Positions 1,471 through 32,323 of a stretch of DNA of 64,000 bases are shown in pieces (the stretch's first letter is position 1; every line of letters starts with the position of its first letter). The stretch is from Dictyostelium discoideum. Taxonomy: Eukaryota. The notes below the pieces were generated by a model. The model made no database searches. It saw only the letters and a program-made list of their open reading frames with translations, and was not told the DNA's origin. Location: the NCBI GenBank assembly GCA_000004695.1, contig CM000150.2, positions 2,752,001 to 2,816,000 on the forward strand, read 5' to 3'. The translations under genes were made by a program, and so were the position numbers.

Positions 1471-4444
1471 ATGAAAATAAATTTAAATTTATTTTTCATT
1501 GTTGTTTTATTACTTTTATTAACAACAAATTCAAATTTTATAAATGGTGAAAAGGATAACGATGATAATGAAAATAATGATAATAACAATAATAATAATA
1601 ATAACAATAATAATAATAACAATAACGAAAATACATTTGTAATTGCAAATGCAGGGGATTTAGACCCAGAAACATTAGAAAAAATTAAAAATTCATTATT
1701 TCAAATAAAACATCACCGTATTATTAGAGAAGAACCTGAGGAGGAGGAAGATGATCATCATGATCATCATGATAGTAATGATGATAATGAAGAAATAAAA
1801 ACAAATAAAAAAAGAAAAAAAGTCAATAATTTAGAACTAAGAGATCAATTTATAATTCAAGGTAGTAATATAGTTAAAGAGAAACCACCAACATCATCAA
1901 CTAAAAGGAGTGATTTAGATGATAATCATAATAATAACAATCATCATCATCTTTACCATGGTTATTATGGTGAAAATGAAGAAGATCATTCATTTTTATT
2001 TGATTTTACAAATTCAAATGTTAGACCAGATAGAGAGTTACCAGGTAGAGATTTATTAATTGAAGCACAAAGATATAGGGGATATTTATTGTATGATAAG
2101 TTAACATCACCAACTCATCCATTCAGTAATTCAATTATGATTCATGGTTTTGATTTATCAACTGATAGAGATTTATTTGAGTTTAAAGGTCAATCGAAAT
2201 TAACTCCACTTGATTCAACAAAAGCTTATCAATTATTATTAGATTCTGCAAATCAAGGTAACCATCGTGCAATGTATTTATTAGGTGTTATGAATGAAGT
2301 AAGTAAATAATAAAATAAATTAATAAATAATGATAATTTAATTATGTTAACATTTTATTATTAAATTTTAATTTTAGATTGGTGAAAATAATAATAATGG
2401 TAATATGGATTTTGTGTTGGCAGAAGAATGGTATTTGAAATCAGCAGAGTATGGTAATTCAGATGCACAAAGATCATTAGGATTTTTATATGCAACTGGA
2501 AAATTGGGATATATTGACGAGGCGAAAGCAATTTTATATTATTCATTCGCTGCAAGGTCTGGTAATATTGTGGCACAGTTGACGATGGCTTATAGGTATT
2601 TACATGGTTATGGTGTTGAAAAGAGTTGTAAGAAGTCATCAATACTCTATGACAAGGTGGCAGCAAGAGTTGTGTCAGATTATGAAATGAGGGGATTCGG
2701 TTACCAAGTGAATTCTCAAAGATTTTCAGAAGAGAGAAAGAGAACACACGGTTATCAAGAGGATAGTGATATAGTGGACTATTTGAAATACTCGTCAGAT
2801 GATCCTGTGACAATGGGTAGACTATATTTGGAGGGCAATTTAGTGCAACAGGACTTCCAATTGGCGTTCGACTACTTTAAGCGTGCTTCGTCAATGGGTC
2901 TAGCTGGCGGCTACTCTGGATTGGGTTTTATGTATAATATGGGCTATGGAGTTATACAATCAAATAAAACAGCGTTCAGCTATTATGTCAAGGCTTCGGA
3001 TTTGGGTGATAAAGATGCAAAGTCGAATCTTGCTGAACTTTATTTCTTTGGATATGGTGTTAATCAAAACACACAAAAAGCAATAGATATTTGGATGGAG
3101 AATTCTCAATATACTGTAGAAACTCATAATGCACATGCAAGTTTTAAAAAAGGTGGTAGTGGCAAGGAGACCATTGTTCAAACTCTTTATCATGCACCAT
3201 CGAATGCTCATTTGGGTAGGGTGTTTGCTTATCATGGTACCAATGGTCAAGGTCAAGGTATTGATCGTAGTAAAGCATTACATTACTTTTCACATGCAAT
3301 CTCTGCTGGTGACATTGGCTCATTCTATCATTTCTCAAAGATTCATTTAGATAAAGATCCATCCTCATGTCCATACGTTGTTCAATATATGAAAAAGATC
3401 GCTGAAAAAGGTGCATGGGCAATCATATTAACAAAGGCTCAAGATCTTTATGAAGAGGATGATACTGATCGTGCATTATTATTAAGTGAAAAAGCAGCTG
3501 AAATGGGTATTGAAATGGCTCAATTTAATTCTGCTTGGATGTATGATAAACGTTTAGGTTTATCATCATATTATAAATCATTAGAGGAACGAGAAGAAGA
3601 AGAACAAGAACAAAAACAAGAAGATAATAGTGATAAAGGTAGAATTGAAGATGAAATTGTAGATTTAATAATTGGTGAGGATAATACAAATAATAAAGAG
3701 GAAGAAGAAGAAGACCAACCAATTAATAAATTATTTAATAAAGACTTTTGGGATCAACAAGCATTTAGATATTATGATTATTCAGCGGAACAATTAAATC
3801 CATTAAGTAGAATAAAGATTGGTGATTTCTTTTATTATGGTATTGGAGTTGAAAAAAGTTTTGAATTAGCAGCAGAGAGTTATAAACAAGCAGCATCAGT
3901 CAGTCAACCAATGGCATTGTTTAATTTGGGTTATCTCTATCAATATGGTGAAGGTGTACCTCAAGATTTCTTTTTAGCAAAGAGATATTACGACCTATCA
4001 TTAACCTATCAACCAAAAGGTTATATACCTGTATATCTATCATTGATTAGTTTATTCTTTCACTTTATTTATACTTTTATTTGTTCATTATTTGATCCAT
4101 CAATTAAAATTTCCTCAACGTCACAAATTGATCCAAAAATAATTTCTCAACAAACTACAACATTAAATAGCGATAAAACAACCACCACCACCACAACAGC
4201 AGGATTTGATAATGATTTTGGTGTAGGTGGTATATTAAATAATTTTTCATTTGATAATGAACTCATTCATCAATTAGAGTCATATACAATGATATTATTT
4301 GCAATTATAATTGGTTTCCTTGTAATAAGAAGACAAAGAATCATTTTAAATCAACAAAGACATCCAATTCGTCAACAACAACCACAACAACCACAACAAC
4401 CACAACAACAAGAACAACAACAACAACAACAACAACAACAATAA
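1471..4444 (+). CDS. SEL1L/Hrd3-like Sel1-repeat ERAD membrane protein, paralogue A. Exons 1471..2298 and 2378..4444.
   Basis: It has a signal peptide, an Asn/Asp-rich low-complexity stretch and multiple Sel1 repeats (AEEWYLKSAEYGNSDAQRSLGFLYATG..., GLGFMYNMGYGV..., LFNLGYLYQYGEGVPQD). A C-terminal TM helix (LFAIIIGFLVIRRQ) is followed by a Q/P-rich tail. The intron is GTAAGT (2299)...TTTTAG (2377), phase 0, and joins ORFs 1471..2310 and 2405..4444. Confidence 0.8.
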
Positions 4445-5343: not shown

Positions 5344-7485
5344 TAATAATAATGATAATATTAACAAAAATAAAAATAAAAATAAAAATAAAAATAAAAA
5401 TAAAATAAAAGATGACATCGAAACATATATAGACGGTGAAGAAGATGAAGAAACAAAGAAGAATAATAATAATAAATTAAAAAATGAAAATGAAAATGAA
5501 AATAGTAATATTAATTTTAATCAATTTATGACATTTCAACAAATTGAACTCGATCCAAATGGTAACATTATAATTAATATGGTACCAAATCAACCACAAA
5601 AACAACTTATAATTAATGATGATAATAGCAATAATCTACAACAACAAGAACAACAACAACAACAACAACAACAACAAGAACAACAAGAACAAGAACAACA
5701 ACAAGAACAACAACAAGAACAACAACAACAACAAATATTAAGACAAAAACAATTTCAATTAGAACAACAAATTCTAAAACAACAAATTCTAAAACAATTT
5801 GTAACAACATTTAATCAAGATGATTTTTTATTTGGAAATGATATAGAGACTACATTTGATAAGAAAACTAAATTACCAATAGCTGATTCAGAATTACCAG
5901 GTAGAGATTTAGTAATTATGGCACAAAAACATAGAGGTTATCTATTGTATGATCAAAAATCTGCTGTTAAAACACATAGATATAGTAATTCAATCATGAT
6001 TTATAATTTCGATCAATCTCCAAATCGTGATATTTTCGAATTTGTTGGTGAAACACCAATTACAACTTTAAATCCAACAAAAGCTTATCAATTATTAATT
6101 GATGCTGCAAATCAAGGTAATCATCGTGCAATGAATTTATTAGGTTCAATGAATGAAGTAAGTAAATAAAATAATAAAATAAAGTAAAATGAAATATAAA
6201 AAATAGCAAATAAATGTTAACATTTTATTTAATATTTAAATTTTAGATTGGTGAAATTAATAATGGTAAAATTAATTTTACATTAGCAGAAGAATGGTAT
6301 TTGAAATCAGCAGAGTATGGTAATTCAGATGCACAAAGATCATTAGGATTTTTATATGCAACTGGAAAGTTGGGATATATTGACGAGGCGAAAGCAATTT
6401 TATATTATTCATTCGCTGCAAGATCTGGTAATATTGTGGCACAGTTAATTATGGCTTATAGGTATTTACATGGTTATGGTGTTGAAAAGAGTTGTAAGAA
6501 ATCATCAATACTCTATGGTAGAGTCAATGAAAAGGTTATCTCTGATTATGAGAGAAGAGGATTCGGTTACAATATTCATAGTCAAAGGTTATCAGAAGAG
6601 TATGAAAAGAAATCAACAGGTTATGCAAGTGAAGAGAATGATATATTGGAATTCTTTCGTTACTCTGCTGAAATGGGTGATGTGGCTTCGTTGATTACAA
6701 TGGCAAGATTATCATTAGAGGGTAGTTTAATGAATCAAGATTTCAGATTGGCAATTGACTATTTTAAACAAGCGATTGATGAAGATGAGCTCGACCAAAC
6801 TACAGCTGAGGGATACGCAGGGTTGGGTTTTATGTATGAGAAAGGTTATGGAGTGGAGCAAGATAATAAAACCGCTGTTGAATATTATACAAAGGCTGTG
6901 AATAATGGTGATAGGGAATCAAGATGGAGGTTAGCTCAACATTTTCTATTTGGTAGTGGTGGTGTTAAACAAGATACTCAAAAAGCATTGGAACTATTTG
7001 AAAGTATTTCCATTGAAATGATAGTTCAGGACGAGGAAGGAAATCAAGTGAAAATGGCACCCGTTAATGAAGCATTATGCTGGTTGGGTAAAATCTATTC
7101 CTATGGTTTGGGTGGTGTCACTATTAATCGTGTAAAAGCTTCCCATTATTTATCTCGTGCTGTTGCTGGTGGTGATGTTGAAGCACATTATCATTTCGCT
7201 ACAATTCATTTGGAGAATGATGAGTCTACTTGTCCTGTGGTTGTAACTCATTTGAAAATGGTCGCTGAAAAAGGTCCTTGGTCAATGATACTCTCAAATG
7301 CTCAAGATCTTTATGATGAAGATGATACAAGTCGTGCATTATTATTAAGTGAAAAAGCAGCTGAAATGGGTATTGAAGCAGCCCAATTCAATGCAGCTTG
7401 GATGTACGACAAACGTTATGGTTTATCAGAATATTATAAATCTAATGATGAAGAAATTGAAGAAACAACCAATGGAATAGATAAC

Positions 7486-7535
<50 letters not shown>

Positions 7536-8268
7536 TAAAAATTCAATTTATATTAATAATTTATTTAATGATGAATTTTTTATTCAACAAGCTTTAAGAT
7601 TATTTTATTACTCTGCAGAACAACAAAATGCATTATCTCATATTAAAATTGGTGATTATTTTTATTATGGAGTTGGTGTTGAAAAGAATTTAGAATCATC
7701 AGCTGAAAGTTATCAAATCGCAGCAAATTTATATCATCCACAAGGTTTATTCAATTTAGGTTATCTTTATCAATGGGGTCAAGGTGTACCACAAGATTTA
7801 TATTTAGCAAAACGTTATTATGATATGTCATTAACAATTAAACCTGAACATAATAAACAAGGCTATGATGGTTACTATGGTTACATTCCAGTTTATTTAA
7901 GTTTAACTGGTTTATTATTTCATTTTATTTACCTTTATTTTTTATCTTTCTTTGATTCATCAGTTCAAATTTCAAATTCATTCAATAATAATAATATGAT
8001 TCATCCAATTGTTGAATCACCACCACCATCAACATCAACAACCGCTTCTTCGTCATCAAATAATGATGGTACCTCAAGTTTTTCTTCAATTGGTTCAACT
8101 TTTAATGAAATTAGATATGCATTGGATAATGAAGTAGTTCAAACTTTAGAAACTTATCTAATGGTTATATTTGCAATTGTTATTGGTTATTTAGTTGTAA
8201 GAAGACAAGGTATACTTTTAAGACAAAATAATAATAGAAGACCACTTAATCAACAACCACAACAATAA
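4997..8268 (+). CDS. SEL1L/Hrd3-like Sel1-repeat protein, paralogue B, a tandem duplicate of the upstream gene. Exons 4997..6157 and 6247..8268.
   Basis: It has the same architecture and the same intron position (GTAAGT at 6158, TTTTAG ending 6246). The exon junction motif ...NQGNHRAMxLLGxMNE|IGE... is conserved between the two genes. Sel1 repeats, a C-terminal TM helix and a Q-rich tail are present. The N-terminal low-complexity (N/Q-rich) region has diverged. Confidence 0.8.
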
Positions 8269-15400: not shown

Positions 15401-16382
15401 TTATTTTGAATCAGATTCTTTTTCTTCACTTTTTTCATTTTCAGCTTCATTATCATTTTCTTCTTGATTATTTAAATAATTTTCAGTATTCATTGCATTT
15501 AAACCTAATTCATCATTTTGTTCATAGGTACGTTCATATTCAACAATTTTTAATTGTGGATCATCATCTGGAGCGAATAAATTTTGAATATAACTATTTG
15601 AAATTGGATCATCAAGTTCAATGGTAAAAGGTTTTTTACCAGCAATGAAAGAATCCAATTGAGAGGTGATCTCTTGATATCTAGCACGATTGGCAGGATC
15701 TGAACTATCACCACGGAAGAATGGATTCTTTTCCAATTCCTCTTTAATGATTGTGATTAAACCTTCGACAGTTGTGAATTTGCCACCTAATGAACCATGG
15801 GTAACTTCAATTTCCAATTCTGGTATGATAACATTTGCAGTGTCACTCTTTAAGATATCACGTGATAAATCTTCAACTGATTCAACACGTAATGTAATGG
15901 TTTTACCTTTTTCAGAGATAGCACCACCTGGTTTGATTTCATTGGTTTTATAACCACATTCATCACAACTGAAAGCCATTAATAAAATTGATTTAAAGTA
16001 TGGGATATCAGTTAAAACCATTTTACATTCACCCATTACACCACAATATGAACATTGATTTGGTAAACTATAAACTTCACGATCTGCTAAATCACCACTT
16101 GGAATTGAAACACTTGTTGTTGTAACTCTTTCATTCTTTTTTGAATCCTCTTGTTGTTGTTTTTGTTGTTCTTCATTTATTCCTAAACCTAAACTTGCAT
16201 TTTGTTCAGCTGTTCTTGTATAATTTGTAACTTTTAAATTTGTATCTGCTTTTGGTGCATTTGGATTCTCAATAAAACTATTACCACTTGGATCATCAAC
16301 AATAATTTTAAATGGTTCATCAACCATTAATAAATTACTTAATTTTGAAACAAATCCTAATAATTCTTCTTTACTTTCAGTC

Positions 16383-17349: not shown

Positions 17350-18405
17350 TTACAAACTACATCCAATATTTTTATCAATAACATGATGAATTGGAGTTGA
17401 TTTTTTATAATTTGGGGAACTAATAATTTTTACATTTAAATTGAGTAGAGATTGTGGTAATATTCCTTCAAAACAAAAACCAAGTGTAACTTGTTTTAAA
17501 TTTGTTAAATGACTAAAGTTTGTGAGAAGTTGAGAATGTTTAATTCCAGAACTAACAGTTGAATATCTCGATGCATTATCGTGATAAATTGTCTTATGGC
17601 AACCAATTTTTAATATTTTCAAAGAAGTTGGTAAAGGTGCATCATTATTTTTACTGATAAAATAATGTTGAAAAGATAATTCCTCCAATCCCATTGGAAA
17701 AACGCCATCTTGAATTCCACAACCACCATTATTGTATTTTTTACCAAATTCAATTTTCTTTACACTATTTGGGAATGAACCTGGTGGAATTTTAGAGTTA
17801 AATTCATCATTAAATATTACATGAGTTATTCCATTTGGAATGATACTACTACTATTACCATTAATTAATAATTGACCTTTGAAATTTTGTTTAAATTTTA
17901 TTATAAAACCATTTTCCAAAACAAATGAAGTAGTATCATTATTTATTTGATCAATTTTTTGATAATTTATTTCAAAATTTGAAGATAAATTATTTTGTTT
18001 TTTTTGATAATTTGTATCAAAAATTGAACATAAATTATTATGTTTTTCTAAACGAGTACTAAGTGTTTCATAAATTGGAATATTTTCTTTATAAAAATTA
18101 TAAGTGTTTTCTGGTGATTGATTAATTATTGATGATGGTGGTGGTTCCATTATTTGGTTTGGTAATGTTTTTATAATTTGATTTGGTGATAGTTTTTCAG
18201 TTAAAAAATTATCTTCATAAATTGTTTCATTATTTTTCAAAAAATCAATGTTTGAAACTTCATGAACTTCTGTTTTTATTGAAGATTGTGAACTATTTAA
18301 TTGTGGTTTTTCATTTTGTTGCAATTGTGTCAAATATTCATTTAATTTTGATATTGATGGTTCTTTTAATAGAGGTTGTTTTTTTTCTTGTTCTGGTTGT
18401 TCTTC

Positions 18406-18472
<67 letters not shown>

Positions 18473-18684
18473 AGTTGTTGTAGTTGTAGTTGTTGTTGTG
18501 GCTGTAGTTGTGGTTGTGATTGTTGTGGTTGAGGTTGTGGTGGTTGAACAAACCTTGGTGAGTTTTCATTTATAATGCTATATTGTAATTTTTTAATTTT
18601 CTTATACTTTCTTTTTGTGTCTTGATCTATTTTTTTAAATTTATAATAAAAAAATGAAGATGGTATTAAAAGGCAACAAGCCAT
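17350..18684 (-). CDS. FNIP-repeat-containing protein with a poly-Gln tract.
   Basis: The C-terminal half carries dictyostelid FNIP-type repeats (VIFNDEFNSKIPPGSFPNSVKKIEFGKKYNNGG...LKIGCHKTIYHDN). It also has a 50-residue Q run from (TTG)n at 18406-18480. The open frame continues upstream of the ATG through a hydrophobic stretch, so a short 5' exon may be missing. Confidence 0.55.
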
Positions 18685-19492: not shown

Positions 19493-20860
19493 TTATATAA
19501 TACAATTTTGGTTTGCTCTTTTTTCTAAAAATCTTTTATCATCGTCAAAATATTTATAGTTGCTTTTTACAAAAATTAAATTCACAGATTTTGGAATATT
19601 TTCCAATTTTTCATTAAAACAATTTCCCATACTCAAATATTCAATATGTGTTGGAATTTTTCCAACTTTTTTTAAAATTGGTTCATAACCACCACGACCA
19701 CAATATCCGAAAAATTCATCTCTTTTTGCATATTGGATATAACAACCCAATTGTAATTTTCTCACTGATAAAGGAACGGTATTTTCATCTAATTCTCTGT
19801 GGAAACTATGACCAAAACCCAATTCTTCAATTTTTGAAGGCATTGAGTATTTTGCAAAATTACAACCACCATTGGTAAAAGAATTTCCAAAATAAAGTTT
19901 TAAAAGATTTGGTGGTAATTGATCCCTTTCAATGGTTTGATTAAAATATTGACCAAATATAATTGTTTTAACAGATTTTGGAAATGAAAATGGTTGAATA
20001 ATAGTATTAAATTTAAAATCAAATAAAACTTCTTGAATATCTTCTGGTATAATTCTTTCCCAATGATTATTATTTAATTCTTTTAATAATGGTGAATTAA
20101 AATTTGTAAAAATACATTTATTACCACTTATAAAACCATATTCATTATTAAAATCTTTTTTATTAATTTTAATAATTTTATTTAATTGAATTGTTGTTGA
20201 TTCTGAAATTGGTAATAAATTTGAAGTAATTATATTATTATTATTAAAATTATTGTTATTATTATTATTATTTATATCAATAATTGGTTGAAATGAATTA
20301 ATATTTGGTGAATATTCATTTGGTGTAGATGATGATGATGATGGTTGTGATGGTGATGAATAAAAACTATGAATATTATTTAAATTTTGTAATTGTGATG
20401 AACAACATGAGGAAGGACCAATAGAATGTTCATAAATTGGTAAAAGTTGATGTTCTTCTTCTTTTTGGAGTTCTTCATTTAAACCAATCTTTTTGATTTT
20501 AATATTAAAATGTGATTGATTTAATGATTTTGGTGTTGATGGTTCTGGAACAAAAATTGGTTCATCCAAATTTGAAACATCATCAGGAATTTGAAAATTT
20601 AATTGTTTATTATTATTAATATTTTGATTATTATTATTAATTTTATTTTCATTTCCTAATTCTTCAACTTGTTTTTCCAATTCCAAGTGTTTTTTTAAAT
20701 TAATTGATTTTTGTTGTTGGTCTTGTTCTTCATGTTGTTGTTTTTGTAATTTTTTTAATTTTTTCTTTTTAATCTCAAAATTATCAAAGAAAATAATAGC
20801 TGCAAAGAATAAAATTAAAAAACATAATATATTTAATATATAAATATTATTAAAACTTAT

Positions 20861-22063: not shown

Positions 22064-23009
22064 TTATAAATCTTTATTGAAATCTTTAAACATTTGTTTA
22101 GTGTTGGTATTATTTTGTTGTTCTTGTTCTTGTTCTTGGTCTTCCTCTTGTTCTTGGTATTGGTCTTCCTCTTGTTCTTTCTTTTTCTTTCTTTCCATTC
22201 TTAAATATTTTTGAACAACTCTATCATGTAATAATTCTGGAAATTCTCTTAATATTCCAATTAAATCAACTTGATCATCTTCATCATCTTTTAATAATGA
22301 ATTAACTTTTTCTTCATTAATATTTTTACTACTACTATTATTATCATCACTATTATCATTATTATTATCATTATTATCATTATTATTACTATTAAATAAA
22401 CCAGAGAATTTTGATTTTAATTTTTCTTTTCTTTTAATTTCATTTTTAATTTTATTATAAAATAATTGTCTAAGTTCAGGACCAATATAATTTGTAATTA
22501 AATCTTGAGAAGTTTCATCTTTAATTTCACTTTGATCTTTTACGAATAAAATATCAGGTACATATTTTGATTTAACTTTTTTACCAATAATCCAACGTAC
22601 TCTACTTTTAATTTTAACTAAACGATGTGAAATATCTCTATCAGTGACTTCAAAGAATAATGATCTATACTTTTTTCTTCTTTTCAATTCAATCTCTCTA
22701 TGTCTTGCTGGACCAACGATATCACTAGTATCCAATAAACTTTCAATACTATATGGAATATTTGTAACTTGTTTCATTGGTGTTGCTTTTAATAACTGTT
22801 CAATTTCTTTATTCTCTTCATCATTAAATTCTTTATTACTAAAACGTTTTAATAATAATTTCTCTCTTTTTTCATCATTAATATTATTATCTTGAATATT
22901 ATTATTATTATTATCATCTTGATTATTATTTATTGAAATTTCTAATTTAACTTTTTTATTTTCAGCCATATGTAAATTATTATTACCAAAATTAAATGGA
23001 TCAATGATA

Positions 23010-23040
<31 letters not shown>

Positions 23041-24697
23041 CATTATCATCATCATCATTATCATTATTTGTTTTTGTTGTTATAACTTTTGAAATGATTT
23101 TTGAATTTGAATTATTTGATTTAATATTTGAAATTGAGATTGATTTATCACTTTTTGAATGAAAATCATAAATTAATTGTTTTGCAGAATTTGTTTCAGT
23201 ATTATTTAAAATATTCTTTAAATTTGTATCTTGAATTGAATCAATTTTAATTAAATCATCATCTTTAATTAATTGATCAACTGTTTTTAAATGTCTTTTT
23301 GATTTCATTGAATTTTCATTAATGTTTGAATGATTTCTACGTTTCCAAAATATTTTAACCCATCTAAGATCACTACTCATTACAGCACCCGTTAATTCAA
23401 TATCTGCTTTCGAAATGATTGGATCAATTCTATCCATACTAAGTTGATCAATTTCATTTGGATTTTGAAAATTTGTTTTATTTTTATTTTTATTTTCTTC
23501 AAAATCAAAATCAATATTAAAATTCTCAATATTATCATCATTATTTTCATCATTATTATTATTATTATCATCATTATTTTCATTATTATTAATATTTATA
23601 TTATTTTCAAACATTTGAGATTCTTTTAAAACTTGTAATATTTTTGAAGCTAATCTTGATTGAACTACAGTTTGTAATGGTGAATCATCGTATTCTGTAT
23701 CGACATATTTGAAACCACGTTTTGAGACGAGTTTCTCTTTTTTAGCAGATTGTAATGCATCTAGTTTTGCGAAATATTTCTTTTCATTTCTAGAGATTGG
23801 TTCATCAGGTTTAAGGAAATAACTTTCAAATTTACTTGGAATTAAAATATCATTTGAATAATAATGACCATTAACTTCTGTTATACCTTTTTTACTCAAC
23901 TCTTGTCTCTTCATTTCTTCAGATTTAACTCTTTCTTCAAATGCATTTGAAAAATTTTTATCATTTATATCAATTTCTCTCCATTCACCACCATTATTAT
24001 TATTATTTGTATTATTTTGACTACCCTCTGAATAATTTTTACCAGTACCTAATGATTTCTTTATAAATTCATCATCTTTTGATTTATCATTTGAGTAGAA
24101 ATATTTCTCACTTATATATAATTTATTTTTATTTATTCCATTTTCGGTTTTTTTATTTTTATTTTGTGATGATGATGGTGATGTTTTATTTTCATAATCG
24201 TCATCATCATTATCTTCATCATTATCTTCATCATAAGTTTCATCATCATCATTAAAATCTTCCTCTTTTAAAAAATCATCATCTTCATTATAATCTTGAT
24301 ATTTATCTTTTTCATTACTACCTATAATTTCATTTGCTTCATCATCATCGAAACCAAATTCTGATTTCAATAAATCTCTTTTGTCTGAATTCTGAAATTT
24401 AGTTTTTTGATTATTATTATCATTATTACTAATATTATTATATCGGTATTCCATTAAATTTTCCATTTGTTTTTTTGAAATATGATTAACTTTAATCTTT
24501 CTATCGTAATTATCTTTTCTTTTGGTATTTCTTAATAAACTACCTCTTCCATATTTTGTTGAATAATATTTATTATTATTATTAAAATTATTAAAATTAA
24601 AATTATTATATGATTGTATTATAAAATTATTTGATATTTGATTATTTTGTTTAATTAATGAAGATGGTGTCGGAGTAGATTTTATTAATCGAAACAT
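22064..24697 (-). CDS. Ribosome-binding factor A (RbfA) domain protein, probably mitochondrial, expanded to 877 aa by Asn/Asp-rich low-complexity inserts.
   Basis: The N-terminus MFRLIKSTPTPSSLIK resembles a mitochondrial presequence. The core segments ADIELTGAVMSSDLRWVKIFW and SLFFEVTDRDISHRLVKIKSRVRWIIGKKVKSKYVPDILFVKDQS match bacterial RbfA (TVSGVEMSRDLAYAKVYV...[28 protein letters not shown]). Confidence 0.55.
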
Positions 24698-24875
24698 GAT
24701 TTGGTTTTTTTAAGAAAAAAATAAAATAAAATAATAAAATAAAATAAAAAATGAAAATTAAAAAACGAAAAAAATAAAAATAAAAAAAAAATAAAAAAAA
24801 AAAAAGATATTTTTTTTTAAATTTTTTTTTTTCTTTTTCCATTACTCACACAACTCAGATTCAAACCTATTTTTT

Positions 24876-24915
<40 letters not shown>

Positions 24916-25614
24916 TTTTTTTTTTTTTTTCTTTTCAATTACTTTTTTTTTTTAAAACTTAATAACCCACCACCCTTTTATTTTATTTTATTTTATTTTA
25001 TTTTATTTTTTTTATTTTTTTTTTACACAAAAATAAAAATAAAATAAAATAAAATAATAAAATATTTTATTTTATTTTGTATATTAATTTGTTTTTTTCA
25101 TTTGTGTAAAATAGATTATTAAAAAAAAAAAAAGGAAAAAAGTAAATAAATAATAATCATTTTTTTTTTTTTTTTTATTTTTACCTTTTTCCTTTTTATC
25201 CACAAACCCCTCACAATAAAAAAAAAGTAAAAAAAAAAAAAAAATCAAAAAAAGATATAAAAACTTTTTTCTTTTTCTCTCTCTCTGTTTATACACATAT
25301 ATATATATACATAATATATATTAACAGAAATAGCTTCATTTAGATCATTTCTTGGAAGGAGATTCAACTACTCCTATCTAAAAGAAGATCCACCTGAAAT
25401 TATAAACGAACCAATTATTACAACTACAAATATTCAATTAGAAACAATAAATTATAATAATAATAATAATAATAGTGGTAATAACAGCGATACCGATAAC
25501 AACGAATTAATTGAAACATTAACAGGAACAACAACTACAATAGTAACACCATACAGACAAAGAACTAAAGCAGTATTGACAACTAATAATAATAGTAATA
25601 ATAATACTACTACA

Positions 25615-29943
<4,329 letters not shown>

Positions 29944-30083
29944 TCAATAAATAAATAAATAAATAATAATAAAAAAAACAATAAAAAAATAAATTTGACT
30001 ATTATTACTTAATAATAAAAATAATTAAAAGATTATTAAAAAAAAAAAAAAAAAAAAAAGTACTACTTTATACAATAATTATT

Positions 30084-30437: not shown

Positions 30438-32323
30438 ATGTTGTTGTTGAGGAGGATTTTTACTATTTATTGAATAAGCCAAATTATTTGCCGTTATTGG
30501 TTCAACTGGATTCTCTATAAAGACTAATAATTCTGCTAAATAATAATAAGTTTTTTCATCAGGTATTTTATTTGTTCTAAAAATATAATAAAATTGTTAA
30601 TATAATAAAATTGTCTATAAAGGAAATTTGGAAAAAAAAAAAATACAAACCTAATTTCTTCATTTACTAAAGTTAATAAAGCTTTTAATAATGAAGGTTG
30701 ATACATTAAAGCCAATAATCTAATTTTTTCACATTCAGAAAATATTGATTCTAATTTTTGAGGTAAAGATTTAAAGAGTCTACTAATTTTAGTGAAATCA
30801 CTATGAATTGAGTCCATTTTAATGTATGGAATTATATTTGATTCAGCAACTGTATTATAAGACATTGTAAATTGAGATTGAATTGGTGGAAAAGGTAATT
30901 GTGGTGGTGGTAATTGTAATTTTTGAGATATACCCTGTTGATGTTGTTGTTGCTGTTGTTGTAAAAATTGTTGTTGTTGTTGCTGTTGTAAATCATTTAA
31001 ATTACCAAGTTCTAAACAAGTTAAATCCTCACCAAGAAATGGTAAATCAACATTTGGTTCAAATAAAGATAATGCTAAAACTGGTACATCATTTTCATAG
31101 GTTGAATTTATCATACCATACCAATTATCTTGAATATGAACGATTGCAGTTTTCTTTTCATTTCTCAAACAATTTTGAAGTACAGGTCCTAATGGTGGTA
31201 ATGTTGATGGTTTAGAATCTGAAATTAATGGTATTAATACATGTCTTGAAAGAGATGGTATATTATTTAATGATTTATTTGGTAAATACCCAATAATTGA
31301 TAATATTGACATTGATAAATTATTATTATTATTATTATTAGTACTATTATTATTATTATTATTACCAACACCACTATTCATTAAACTACTCTTTGGAATA
31401 CCACCATTATTTAAAAAGTTTAATAAAGTCATTGGATTTGGATAAATTGTCATTGGTGAATTTAATCTACCAAATACTAAAACACATTTATAAAGATTAT
31501 AATTATTATTAACTATTCTATTAATTATATTTGTTAATTCAATATTTAATTGTAATATACTACTAGAATTACTATTTTTAATTTGATTATTTAATTTAAT
31601 TATATCAACTGTACCACGAAAATTATTATTTACTCTAATTTGATTATTATTTTTTTCATTATTATTTAATTGACTATTATTATTATTATTACTATCGAAT
31701 TTATTACTATTATTATTATTATTTGAATGATTTAAATAAATCAAATGACTATTTGAATGATTTAAATGATTATCTTTTATACAAATTGAAATGAAATGAA
31801 ATTGATGAACAAAAGGGAATTGAAAATTTTTAATTTTTGAAAATATTGAATCACCATCACCACTACTACATTTATCAAATGCAGTACATTGATCGGTAAA
31901 TATAAATATTTCAGTCGCAACACTTGTCGAATTACCATATGTAGATTGAATTAATTCACAAACTTGATTTAAAGCATTCAATAAATCTGTACGATCTGAT
32001 AATCTTATATCAATATTATTTTCAAATTCATTTAAAAACTCTTGAAATCCTTTTGTAAACGGTATTATAACATTTACATCGGATGAATAAGTTAACAATG
32101 CTATTGGATTTGCCATATATGAACTAAATTTTGATGTTAATGTTGATAAAAAATATCCAATTGTTGATTTTAATATATCAAAATATGTTTTAATCTCTTC
32201 TTCATTATTATTATTATTGTTATTATTATTATTTGAGCTATCTATATTATTATTTCCATTATTAATTCTAAATATAGAATGTGCCATTGAAATTGATACA
32301 TCCAATAATAAAACTGTTGCCAT
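30084..32323 (-). CDS. Integrator complex subunit 14 (INTS14/VWA9)-like protein with a C-terminal poly-Gln/His tail. Exons 30651..32323 and 30084..30576.
   Basis: The N-terminal VWA-like region MATVLLLDVSISM...LLTYSSDVNVIIPFTKGFQEF...EIFIFTDQC matches INTS14 (MPTVVVMDVSLSM...LVVFSSLWELMVPFTRDY...VVLVTDGC). DNWYGMINSTYENDVPVLALSLFEPNVDLPFLG matches EWHGMLYSQADSKKKSNLMMSLFEPGPEPLPWLG. The intron has a GTTTGT donor at 30650..30645 and a TTTTTAG acceptor ending 30577. Splicing in phase 2 joins to the Q/H-rich ORF 30084..30482, whose listed start is a TTG. Confidence 0.6.

Follow-up and report, generated by a model that had tools for sequence, protein, structure and literature searches.

Gene and gene model

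The stretch of DNA analysed here (the window) comprises 64,000 nucleotides of Dictyostelium discoideum (contig CM000150.2 of assembly GCA_000004695.1, positions 2,752,001 to 2,816,000 of the forward strand), and positions are given relative to its first letter. The gene in question lies at 22064-24697 on the minus strand and encodes a protein that carries a genuine, complete but split RbfA domain. It consists of an uninterrupted single-exon open reading frame (ORF) of 877 codons plus stop, as an initial annotation made from the letters of the window had read it, and its product of 877 amino acids (aa) was found by exact-sequence look-up to be identical to D. discoideum AX4 DDB_G0270868 (Q55E10, XP_645971.1). 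This entry is named 'hypothetical protein' by NCBI and 'Uncharacterized protein' in UniRef, and a literature search found no paper that mentions the locus tag. The window has a G+C content of ~20% and contains poly-Asn-encoding tracts, typical of Dictyostelium nuclear DNA. With 16.4% N, 11.9% K, 10.5% D and 8.4% E, the protein is Asn/Asp-rich, in agreement with the initial annotation.

The protein was divided into the following segments, given from the N- to the C-terminus together with predicted helices (H), predicted strands (E) and values of the predicted local distance difference test (pLDDT) where these apply:

24515-24697, minus strand: presequence-like leader, aa 1-61, with 0 D/E, 9 K/R and 11 S/T
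24134-24454, minus strand: acidic linker, partly low-complexity (D/E/N runs), aa 82-188, 46-168 aa among species
23693-24133, minus strand: N-terminal module (N-module), predicted α/β, aa 189-335 (~145 aa), conserved across dictyostelids
23609-23692, minus strand: RbfA helix α1 (QTVVQSRLASKILQVLKES), aa 336-363, covering the profile from position 2; H344-359, pLDDT 78-86
23435-23608, minus strand: insert 1 in the α1-β1 loop, aa 364-421, 58 aa, with pLDDT < 50 and predicted disordered; strain indels fall here
23336-23434, minus strand: RbfA β1-β2 hairpin (DPIISKADIELTGAVMSSDLRWVKIFWKR), aa 422-454; E433-440 and E446-453, pLDDT 82-85
22658-23335, minus strand: insert 2 in the β2-α2 loop, aa 455-680, 226 aa, mostly with pLDDT < 50 and predicted disordered
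22460-22657, minus strand: RbfA α2/α3 helix-kink-helix, β3 and start of the C-terminal helix (TDRDISHRLVKIKSRVRWIIGKKVKSKYVPDILFVKDQS...), aa 681-746; H686-695, H697-708 and E715-720, pLDDT 82-85
22067-22459, minus strand: C-terminal extension, aa 747-877, with two conserved motifs ('LKNKFSGLF' and the C-terminal 'FK(Q/D)FNK'), a long helix, further helices at 812-850, an Asn/Asp run and an acidic E/Q repeat

A frame of this kind could be an artefact of the gene model, either because the inserts are unrecognised introns or because read-through has fused two genes into the ORF; the true product would then be a short canonical RbfA. The inserts are indeed very AT-rich, with 11-17% GC in places, and the start codon of the AX4 model is not the one chosen in newer NCBI annotations of other strains. 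However, all 877 codons are open, and a search for a strong splice-donor consensus within the ORF found none, the only candidate being a single GTAAAT. The G+C content at first codon positions (GC1) exceeds that at third positions (GC3) across the whole ORF, and within the inserts GC1 is much higher than GC3, as in coding sequence. In each of nine species, an independent gene model retains the two inserts in frame, located at matching positions and containing conserved motifs; the length differences between strains are all multiples of three, and the two NCBI models at issue are colinear with the ORF, their start being the sole difference. On the basis of the open frame, the codon-position GC, the in-frame indels and the independent colinear models, the intron or fusion artefact, which we hold to be scarcely credible, was rejected.

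In the two recent NCBI models (KAM9941327.1, 796 aa; P0002, 786 aa), which come from assemblies labelled D. discoideum, the protein begins at the internal methionines M82 or M86. In one of these assemblies (locus L001; GCA_054859355.1, JBTAPG010000066.1), the frame is open back to an identical MFRLIKSTP start (L001:1291-1500), and the long form is therefore the better gene model; in D. purpureum, too, the long ORF and its start are conserved, as is a motif between the long start and the internal methionine. The M82/M86-start models look 5'-truncated, dropping the presequence-like leader (aa 1-81, 24455-24697). The start codon is also overlapped by a minus-strand ORF of 63 aa (24651-24842), which looks spurious. 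In the 5' flank (24711-24911), A and T form long homopolymers and arrays of short period, among them an unbroken run of A35 at 24877-24911, as is typical of Dictyostelium intergenic DNA.

Profile and sequence evidence for the RbfA domain

The RbfA (type-II KH) domain is complete and comes in three pieces, comprising α1 (aa 336-363), β1-β2 (aa 422-454) and α2-kink-α3-β3 (aa 681-746), with a core of ~127 residues and gaps formed by the inserts of 58 and 226 aa. The initial annotation had recognised two RbfA blocks and put them at about 100 of the 877 residues. Both blocks are real (aa 435-451 and 692-723) and lie within the Pfam match, but the segments are three, helix α1 having been missed, and the core is larger than estimated. 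In an alignment of nine species, the invariant residues are Q346, I353, L357 and F363 in α1; D425, P426, S441, D443, L444, W446, K448, W451 and R453 in β1-β2; and D686, R692, L693, R701, K706, V713, P714, F718 and D721 in α2-α3-β3.

Profile searches were performed against the Pfam family RBFA (PF02033), for which the curated gathering cut-off is 34.7 bits. The intact protein matched in two stretches with an E-value (E) of 2.4e-6 and 28.2 bits. This match is significant, and the profile search that the initial annotation had set beforehand as a refuting test thus left the assignment standing; the score, however, is under the cut-off, which we attribute to the domain being split. A 147-aa construct was spliced from aa ~336-363, ~422-460 and ~667-746, with the splice points picked with knowledge of the family. 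Freed of the inserts in this way, the domain matched in one stretch over profile positions 2-103 of 105 with 38.8 bits and an E of 1.3e-9, above the cut-off. All 7 further orthologues matched the same family, and 4 of the 7 exceed the cut-off while intact (Polysphondylium violaceum, 39.6; Cavenderia fasciculata, 37.5; Tieghemostelium lacteum, 37.3; Synstelium polycarpum, 35.6). The NCBIfam RbfA equivalog models gave no useful recognition of the intact protein (17 bits versus a cut-off of 236), as one would expect of a eukaryotic member that is both divergent and split.

A single-sequence search of the PDB with the intact protein yielded weak RbfA matches only, and the second block (aa 692-723) aligns to H. 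influenzae RbfA 1JOS. A core profile was then built from the spliced RbfA cores of nine dictyostelid species and run against 177,635 distinct PDB sequences, among which RbfA was the sole family matched, with the following E-values:

H. influenzae RbfA (1JOS): 1.1e-6
E. coli RbfA: 4.3e-5
T. maritima RbfA: 6e-4
mouse mitochondrial RBFA: 0.025
human mitochondrial RBFA (2E7G): 0.063
M. pneumoniae RbfA: 0.07

An A-x-G turn in the helix-kink-helix has been described for E. coli RbfA. Where E. coli and T. maritima RbfA have this turn, D. discoideum has I-K-S; the aligned triplet reads K-G-R in both P. violaceum and T. lacteum, and groups 1 and 2 have T-P-R. In the same alignment, A-x-G is likewise missing from H. 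influenzae RbfA (A-S-P) and from mouse mitochondrial RBFA (A-A-Y). As the turn is not universal among accepted RbfA members, I-K-S was not taken as disqualifying, and a helix break is predicted at residue 696 despite it.

Predicted fold

Structure prediction was performed with AlphaFold2 on the unspliced 877-aa protein, using a shallow alignment that consisted of nine dictyostelid sequences only. The mean pLDDT was 50.7 overall and 78-86 in the three RbfA segments. The predicted elements follow the order of RbfA, with H344-359, E433-440, E446-453, H686-695, a break, H697-708 and E715-720, and the model thus has the type-II KH order α1-β1-β2-α2-(kink)-α3-β3. With this unspliced model, Foldseek ranked RbfA entries at the top without reaching significance, which we ascribe to its inability to bridge the inserts.

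An insert-deleted core model, aligned to the full-length orthologues, had a pLDDT of 77.6 and a predicted template modelling score (pTM) of 0.66. In a Foldseek search against the PDB, 25 of the 25 top matches of this model were RbfA. The best of them were mouse and human mitochondrial RBFA bound to assembly intermediates of the mitochondrial small subunit (mt-SSU), with E down to 1.3e-6 and a target-normalised template modelling (TM) score of up to 0.82. Further structure matches are given with their scores:

2DYJ, T. thermophilus RbfA: 10.3, with 88 of 91 residues superposing at 1.7 Å
8BYV, S. aureus RbfA: 9.4
7X9U, human mitochondrial RBFA KH domain: 9.3
2KZF, T. maritima RbfA: 9.3
7PNX, human mitochondrial RBFA: 8.4

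RbfA sequences from outside Dictyostelia were in neither AlphaFold2 alignment, so that the input did not dictate the fold. According to the models, the three segments join into one RbfA fold despite the two loop inserts; the KH fold would tolerate these because both are located in surface loops and are mostly predicted to be disordered.

Orthologues and conserved architecture

A word-indexed search with the whole protein, in which low-complexity candidates swamped the rest, recovered D. purpureum and two variants labelled D. discoideum, and nothing further. An exhaustive HMMER search with a full-length orthologue profile was performed over 1.84 billion cluster representatives and returned nine proteins, and nothing else, at E <= 1e-3. 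They belong to P. violaceum, T. lacteum, S. polycarpum, Heterostelium album, Acytostelium subglobosum, C. fasciculata, one EukProt species, D. purpureum and a second D. discoideum-like strain. Orthologues are therefore present in eight further dictyostelid species (nine in all), which we take to span all four major dictyostelid groups; they have 625-870 aa and are all annotated as hypothetical. The full-length profile, with which a canonical RbfA of short length would fall below significance, gave one match per species. Word-indexed searches with spliced-core alignments retrieved no non-dictyostelid amoebozoan RBFA, giving either no match or one weak bacterial RbfA.

The initial annotation had proposed an alignment of amoebozoan orthologues as a check on whether the inserts are lineage-specific. 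Such an alignment was run among the nine dictyostelids and placed both inserts in all of them, with the two interruptions of the domain at identical loops in 9 of 9 species. The lengths across the nine species are:

insert 1, α1-β1 loop: 30-58 aa
insert 2, β2-α2 loop: 154-241 aa
N-terminal module: 134-155 aa
C-terminal tail: 98-146 aa

Since the inserts, the N-module and the tail occupy the same positions with similar lengths in every one of the nine species, the large size of the protein is an ancestral, conserved dictyostelid architecture, older than the Asn/Asp runs. Mean pairwise identity is highest in the RbfA segments (0.43-0.59), followed by 0.33 in the N-module and 0.16-0.33 elsewhere.

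The N-module has the consensus KTY.SE.Y / D..FI / W.E.D / EL.KKGLT..DG.LY....IP.KFESYFL.P..P.SR.EKN.F..LDAL..AKKE....KRK. Nine of its residues are invariant (D208, W239, K269, G271, F294, P297, R303, E305 and R327), 38 of its columns are identical in at least 6 of the 9 species, and aa ~250-320 are predicted with a pLDDT of 70-86. Searches for relatives in Pfam and the PDB found none, the module having no detectable similarity to anything solved. Insert 2 contains two conserved motifs, 'I..IL.NL.T..AK' at aa ~494-506 and 'FSFG...KV.L..SIP' at aa ~568-590 (window ~22928-22996), with F570 and G571 of the latter invariant in 9 of 9 species. A known counterpart was not found for this single FSFG motif amid the disordered insert, where a β-strand is predicted with low confidence. 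In the C-terminal tail, F768 and F870 are invariant among the nine species, and helices are predicted at H728-764 and H812-850 with a pLDDT of 65-80; a Pfam search for a known domain in the tail gave noise only.

Low-complexity runs and strain comparison

Low-entropy windows cover 315 of the 877 residues (36%) in the D. discoideum protein and 6%-24% in the other species. The Asn, Asp and Glu-Gln runs coincide with microsatellites, which are located as follows:

22316-22394, 23008-23068 and 23530-23605: (AAT)n repeats in the C-tail, insert 2 and insert 1, respectively
24186-24252: (GAT)n-like triplet repeat in the acidic linker
22118-22179: GAACAA repeats, the E/Q repeat of the C-tail

The AX4 gene was compared codon by codon with its counterpart at L001. 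All 13 of the 13 indels between them are in frame and fall within N/D/E/Q runs. The ratio of nonsynonymous to synonymous substitution rates (dN/dS) was 0.16 in the RbfA core, 0.41 in the inserts and 0.33 overall, values that are based on small counts and are indicative only. With a synonymous divergence (dS) of ~0.09 and 13 in-frame indels relative to AX4, the L001 assembly, which also carries P0002, is rather divergent for one species and might represent a cryptic species or a lineage of its own.

These runs raise the question of whether anything besides a ~100-130-aa domain of a mitochondrial RbfA is functional, the rest being neutral low-complexity sequence brought in by repeat slippage. 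Over a third of the D. discoideum protein is of this kind, the runs follow triplet microsatellites, they absorb every strain indel, and the inserts are mostly predicted to be disordered; insert 1 has an Asn content of 41% in D. discoideum only, compared with 3-16% in the other species. Moreover, mutation and drift are reported to account for most of the evolution of D. discoideum coding repeats, which are described as abundant, highly variable and for the most part neutral (PMC3460934). The same segments are, however, retained in 9 of 9 species, T. lacteum among them, whose protein is 6% low-complexity yet reaches 694 aa. Against neutrality also speak the nine invariant residues, the conserved columns and the well-predicted part of the N-module, the invariant F570/G571 in insert 2 and F768/F870 in the tail, and an insert dN/dS of 0.41 rather than ~1, with the reservation that the counts are small. 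We consider it improbable that the bulk of the protein is merely tolerated. Accordingly, the view of the initial annotation that the protein has simply put up with extreme low-complexity insertion finds no support, and its statement that the rest is low-complexity was too strong, as the remaining sequence includes the conserved N-module and the motifs of insert 2 and the C-tail.

The runs vary in length between strains, as they do in repeat proteins throughout the D. discoideum proteome (PMC3460934; PMC13093961). Unlike in typical repeat proteins of this organism, they explain about one third of the protein, and its expanded architecture is older, being present in repeat-poor species. The Asn/Asp runs are thus recent, D. 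discoideum-specific triplet-repeat filler, ordinary for the organism and layered on an older architecture; mechanistically, they would represent neutral triplet-repeat expansions in disordered loops.

N-terminal leader

The N-terminal 61 residues are basic and free of acidic residues in a protein with 19% D/E, for which the chance is ~3e-6 under the protein's own composition. A similar bias is found in 8 of 9 orthologues, with 3-7 K/R and 0-2 D/E in the first 40 residues; only the Synstelium model departs from it, and this model seems to lack its 5' end. The leader is directly followed by a conserved 'S(L/I)L.NTK(R/K)...KVNH.S' motif. The helical hydrophobic moment computed for the leader is not conspicuous, with a maximum of 0.53 at its very N-terminal end, and the amphipathic-helix signal is weak. 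The resemblance to a mitochondrial targeting signal noted in the initial annotation therefore holds for the composition of the leader and for its counterparts in the orthologues, while its action as a mitochondrial presequence is plausible, as judged from sequence. To our knowledge, Dictyostelium has no plastid, and mitochondria are its only compartment with bacterial-type ribosomes.

Comparison with known RbfA systems

Bacterial RbfA and mammalian RBFA bind to the neck and platform of the immature small subunit, where they hold the rRNA 3' end, h28 and the h44-h45 linker, promote the dimethylation of the h45 adenines and leave before initiation (PMC5468982; PMC9200640; PMC9892005). In mammalian RBFA, bS21m and an N-terminal peptide jointly clamp the rRNA 3' end, a C-terminal helix binds METTL15, and an acidic C-terminal stretch plugs the mRNA channel (PMC9200640; PMC9892005).

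The dictyostelid protein is like mammalian mitochondrial RBFA (human C18orf22/RBFA, 343 aa; mouse, 350 aa; PDB 7PNT-7PO0, 8CSR, 9G5B and 7X9U) in that it is nuclear-encoded with an N-terminal leader, and acidic stretches in the C-terminal extension are common to both. It differs in being 2.5x longer and in the inserts within its KH domain, of which mammalian RBFA has none, the mouse chain aligning contiguously over residues 122-189. Core identity between the two is only ~14-17%. Both have N- and C-terminal extensions, which are conserved within Dictyostelia, but no similarity is detectable between those of the two groups. Residues aligned with the mammalian contacts to h28 and the rRNA 3' end are conserved in the dictyostelid protein. 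The mapping was done by HMMER alignment to the mouse chain, with the mouse contacts taken from the legend of Extended Data Fig. 6 of PMC9200640:

mouse T132 (h28): D. discoideum S441, invariant in Dictyostelia
mouse S136 (h28): D. discoideum R445, not invariant
mouse R139 (h28): D. discoideum K448, invariant in Dictyostelia
mouse R166 (rRNA 3' end): D. discoideum R701, invariant in Dictyostelia
mouse H167 (rRNA 3' end): D. discoideum W702, not invariant
mouse N177 (rRNA 3' end): D. discoideum Y712, not invariant

A 'YW' after β2 is also shared with mammalian mitochondrial RBFA, mouse W142 aligning with the invariant W451, and is missing in 4 of 4 aligned bacterial RbfAs. With the bacterial proteins (E. 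coli P15B; H. influenzae 1JOS; T. thermophilus 2DYJ; PF02033), the dictyostelid protein has in common the full-length profile match once the inserts are removed, 'SxDL' in the β1-β2 turn, 'VP(D/E)I.F..D' in β3 and an Arg in α3. Bacterial RbfA, in contrast, has ~95-135 aa and consists of the domain alone, with no leader, inserts or extensions. A further match was obtained with a 353-aa protein of the Trypanosoma brucei mt-SSU assemblosome (6SGA chain FJ; Foldseek E 8.3e-4), which we take to be an RbfA-like mitochondrial assembly factor. It has the RbfA fold within a longer lineage-specific protein, as in Dictyostelia, but is much shorter than the dictyostelid protein, and the likeness is known here from the structural match alone.

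Proposed function

With good confidence, we assign the gene to mitochondrial RBFA as its dictyostelid orthologue, in which the architecture is expanded in a clade-specific manner. The organellar ribosome-assembly role put forward in the initial annotation remains the best reading, in this case a mitochondrial one. After synthesis in the cytosol, the protein would be imported into mitochondria via its acid-free basic leader. In the matrix, by analogy with the known systems, the KH domain would bind the 3' minor domain and the 3' end of the mitochondrial small-subunit rRNA (h28 and the h44-h45 linker), keep this region immature and accessible during late small-subunit maturation, and be displaced before translation initiation. 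The N-module, the insert-2 motifs and the C-tail probably add contacts to the ribosome or to other assembly factors, paralleling the mammalian extensions.

Several points weigh against this assignment. The intact protein scores under the Pfam cut-off, it has I-K-S in place of the A-x-G turn, and its structural model derives from a shallow alignment of dictyostelid sequences. The mitochondrial localisation is deduced from the composition of the leader, which is indirect evidence, and the roles of the N-module, inserts and tail are proposed purely by analogy with mammalian RBFA. Finally, if D. discoideum has a second, canonical short RbfA, the long protein could have a different job.

A rival reading is a neofunctionalised protein with an RbfA fold that has left mitoribosome assembly, for instance a cytosolic or nuclear RNA-binding protein or a mitochondrial one with another RNA target; the KH domain would be kept as a scaffold, and the dictyostelid modules would carry the function. 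It would fit with the first two of the points above and with most of the conserved mass lying outside the RbfA domain, and S. cerevisiae manages without RBFA (PMC9892005), which shows that eukaryotes can lose or replace this function. The RbfA segments, however, have the highest pairwise identity in the protein (0.43-0.59 versus 0.16-0.33 elsewhere), the residues aligned with mammalian rRNA contacts (S441, K448 and R701) are invariant, an import-like leader is present in 8 of 9 species, and exactly one such protein was recovered per species. Because conservation peaks in the RbfA segments and at the RNA-contact positions, we disfavour neofunctionalisation and give it little credence.

Within the assignment as mitochondrial RBFA, it is conceivable, though we advance this only tentatively, that RBFA fused with or grew the N-module as an independently folding unit before the dictyostelid radiation and also gained structured motifs within insert 2, and that the module, together with these motifs, forms docking sites for clade-specific steps of mt-SSU assembly. 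If this is true, the docking sites could take over the clamping of the rRNA 3' end, the recruitment of a methyltransferase or the plugging of the mRNA channel, which are done otherwise in other lineages, and the protein would be a multi-functional assembly hub and not a simple RbfA.

The analysis provides a functional assignment for the 'hypothetical' DDB_G0270868 and its orthologues in eight other social-amoeba species, and brings an amoebozoan example to the few lineages in which mitochondrial RBFA has been examined. It describes a small RNA-binding fold that stays intact with loops of 30-58 aa and 154-241 aa in every dictyostelid lineage sampled, and the N-module and insert motifs are candidates for lineage-specific mitoribosome assembly contacts. 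For annotation, it illustrates that split domains can drop under curated cut-offs, and that newer NCBI models of this gene lose the leader. Family and mechanism were already known; the assignment and the split, expanded architecture are modestly new and do not overturn current understanding, and the protein is most likely an unusual-looking but otherwise ordinary member of the RbfA family.

Neighbouring genes

The neighbours are unrelated nuclear genes and follow no operon-like logic, as expected for a eukaryote:

15401-16327, minus strand: ZPR1 zinc-finger/jelly-roll gene, ordinary housekeeping
17350-18684 and 19493-20686, minus strand: two adjacent FNIP-repeat genes, immediately downstream of the RbfA gene and on the same strand
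25576-26226, 26551-26991 and 27685-29943, plus strand: multi-exon P4-type phospholipid flippase, upstream of the RbfA gene
30536-32323, minus strand: VWA and Integrator-subunit-14-like (IntS14) gene, ordinary housekeeping

An FNIP gene is the downstream neighbour at L001 as well, and local synteny is thus kept between the strains. The flippase region contains a plus-strand ORF with ~80 consecutive Asn codons, followed by ORFs for an E1-E2 ATPase and for the C-terminus of a phospholipid-translocating P-type ATPase, and taken together these resemble the exons of a single P4-ATPase gene whose N-terminal part would contain an extreme poly-Asn tract. Along the window, the 2-kb bins 2001-4000, 6001-8000 and 28001-30000 are G+C-rich (0.30-0.33 versus ~0.20), presumably owing to dense coding exons, and the bins 2001-4000 and 6001-8000 show a strong positive GC skew.

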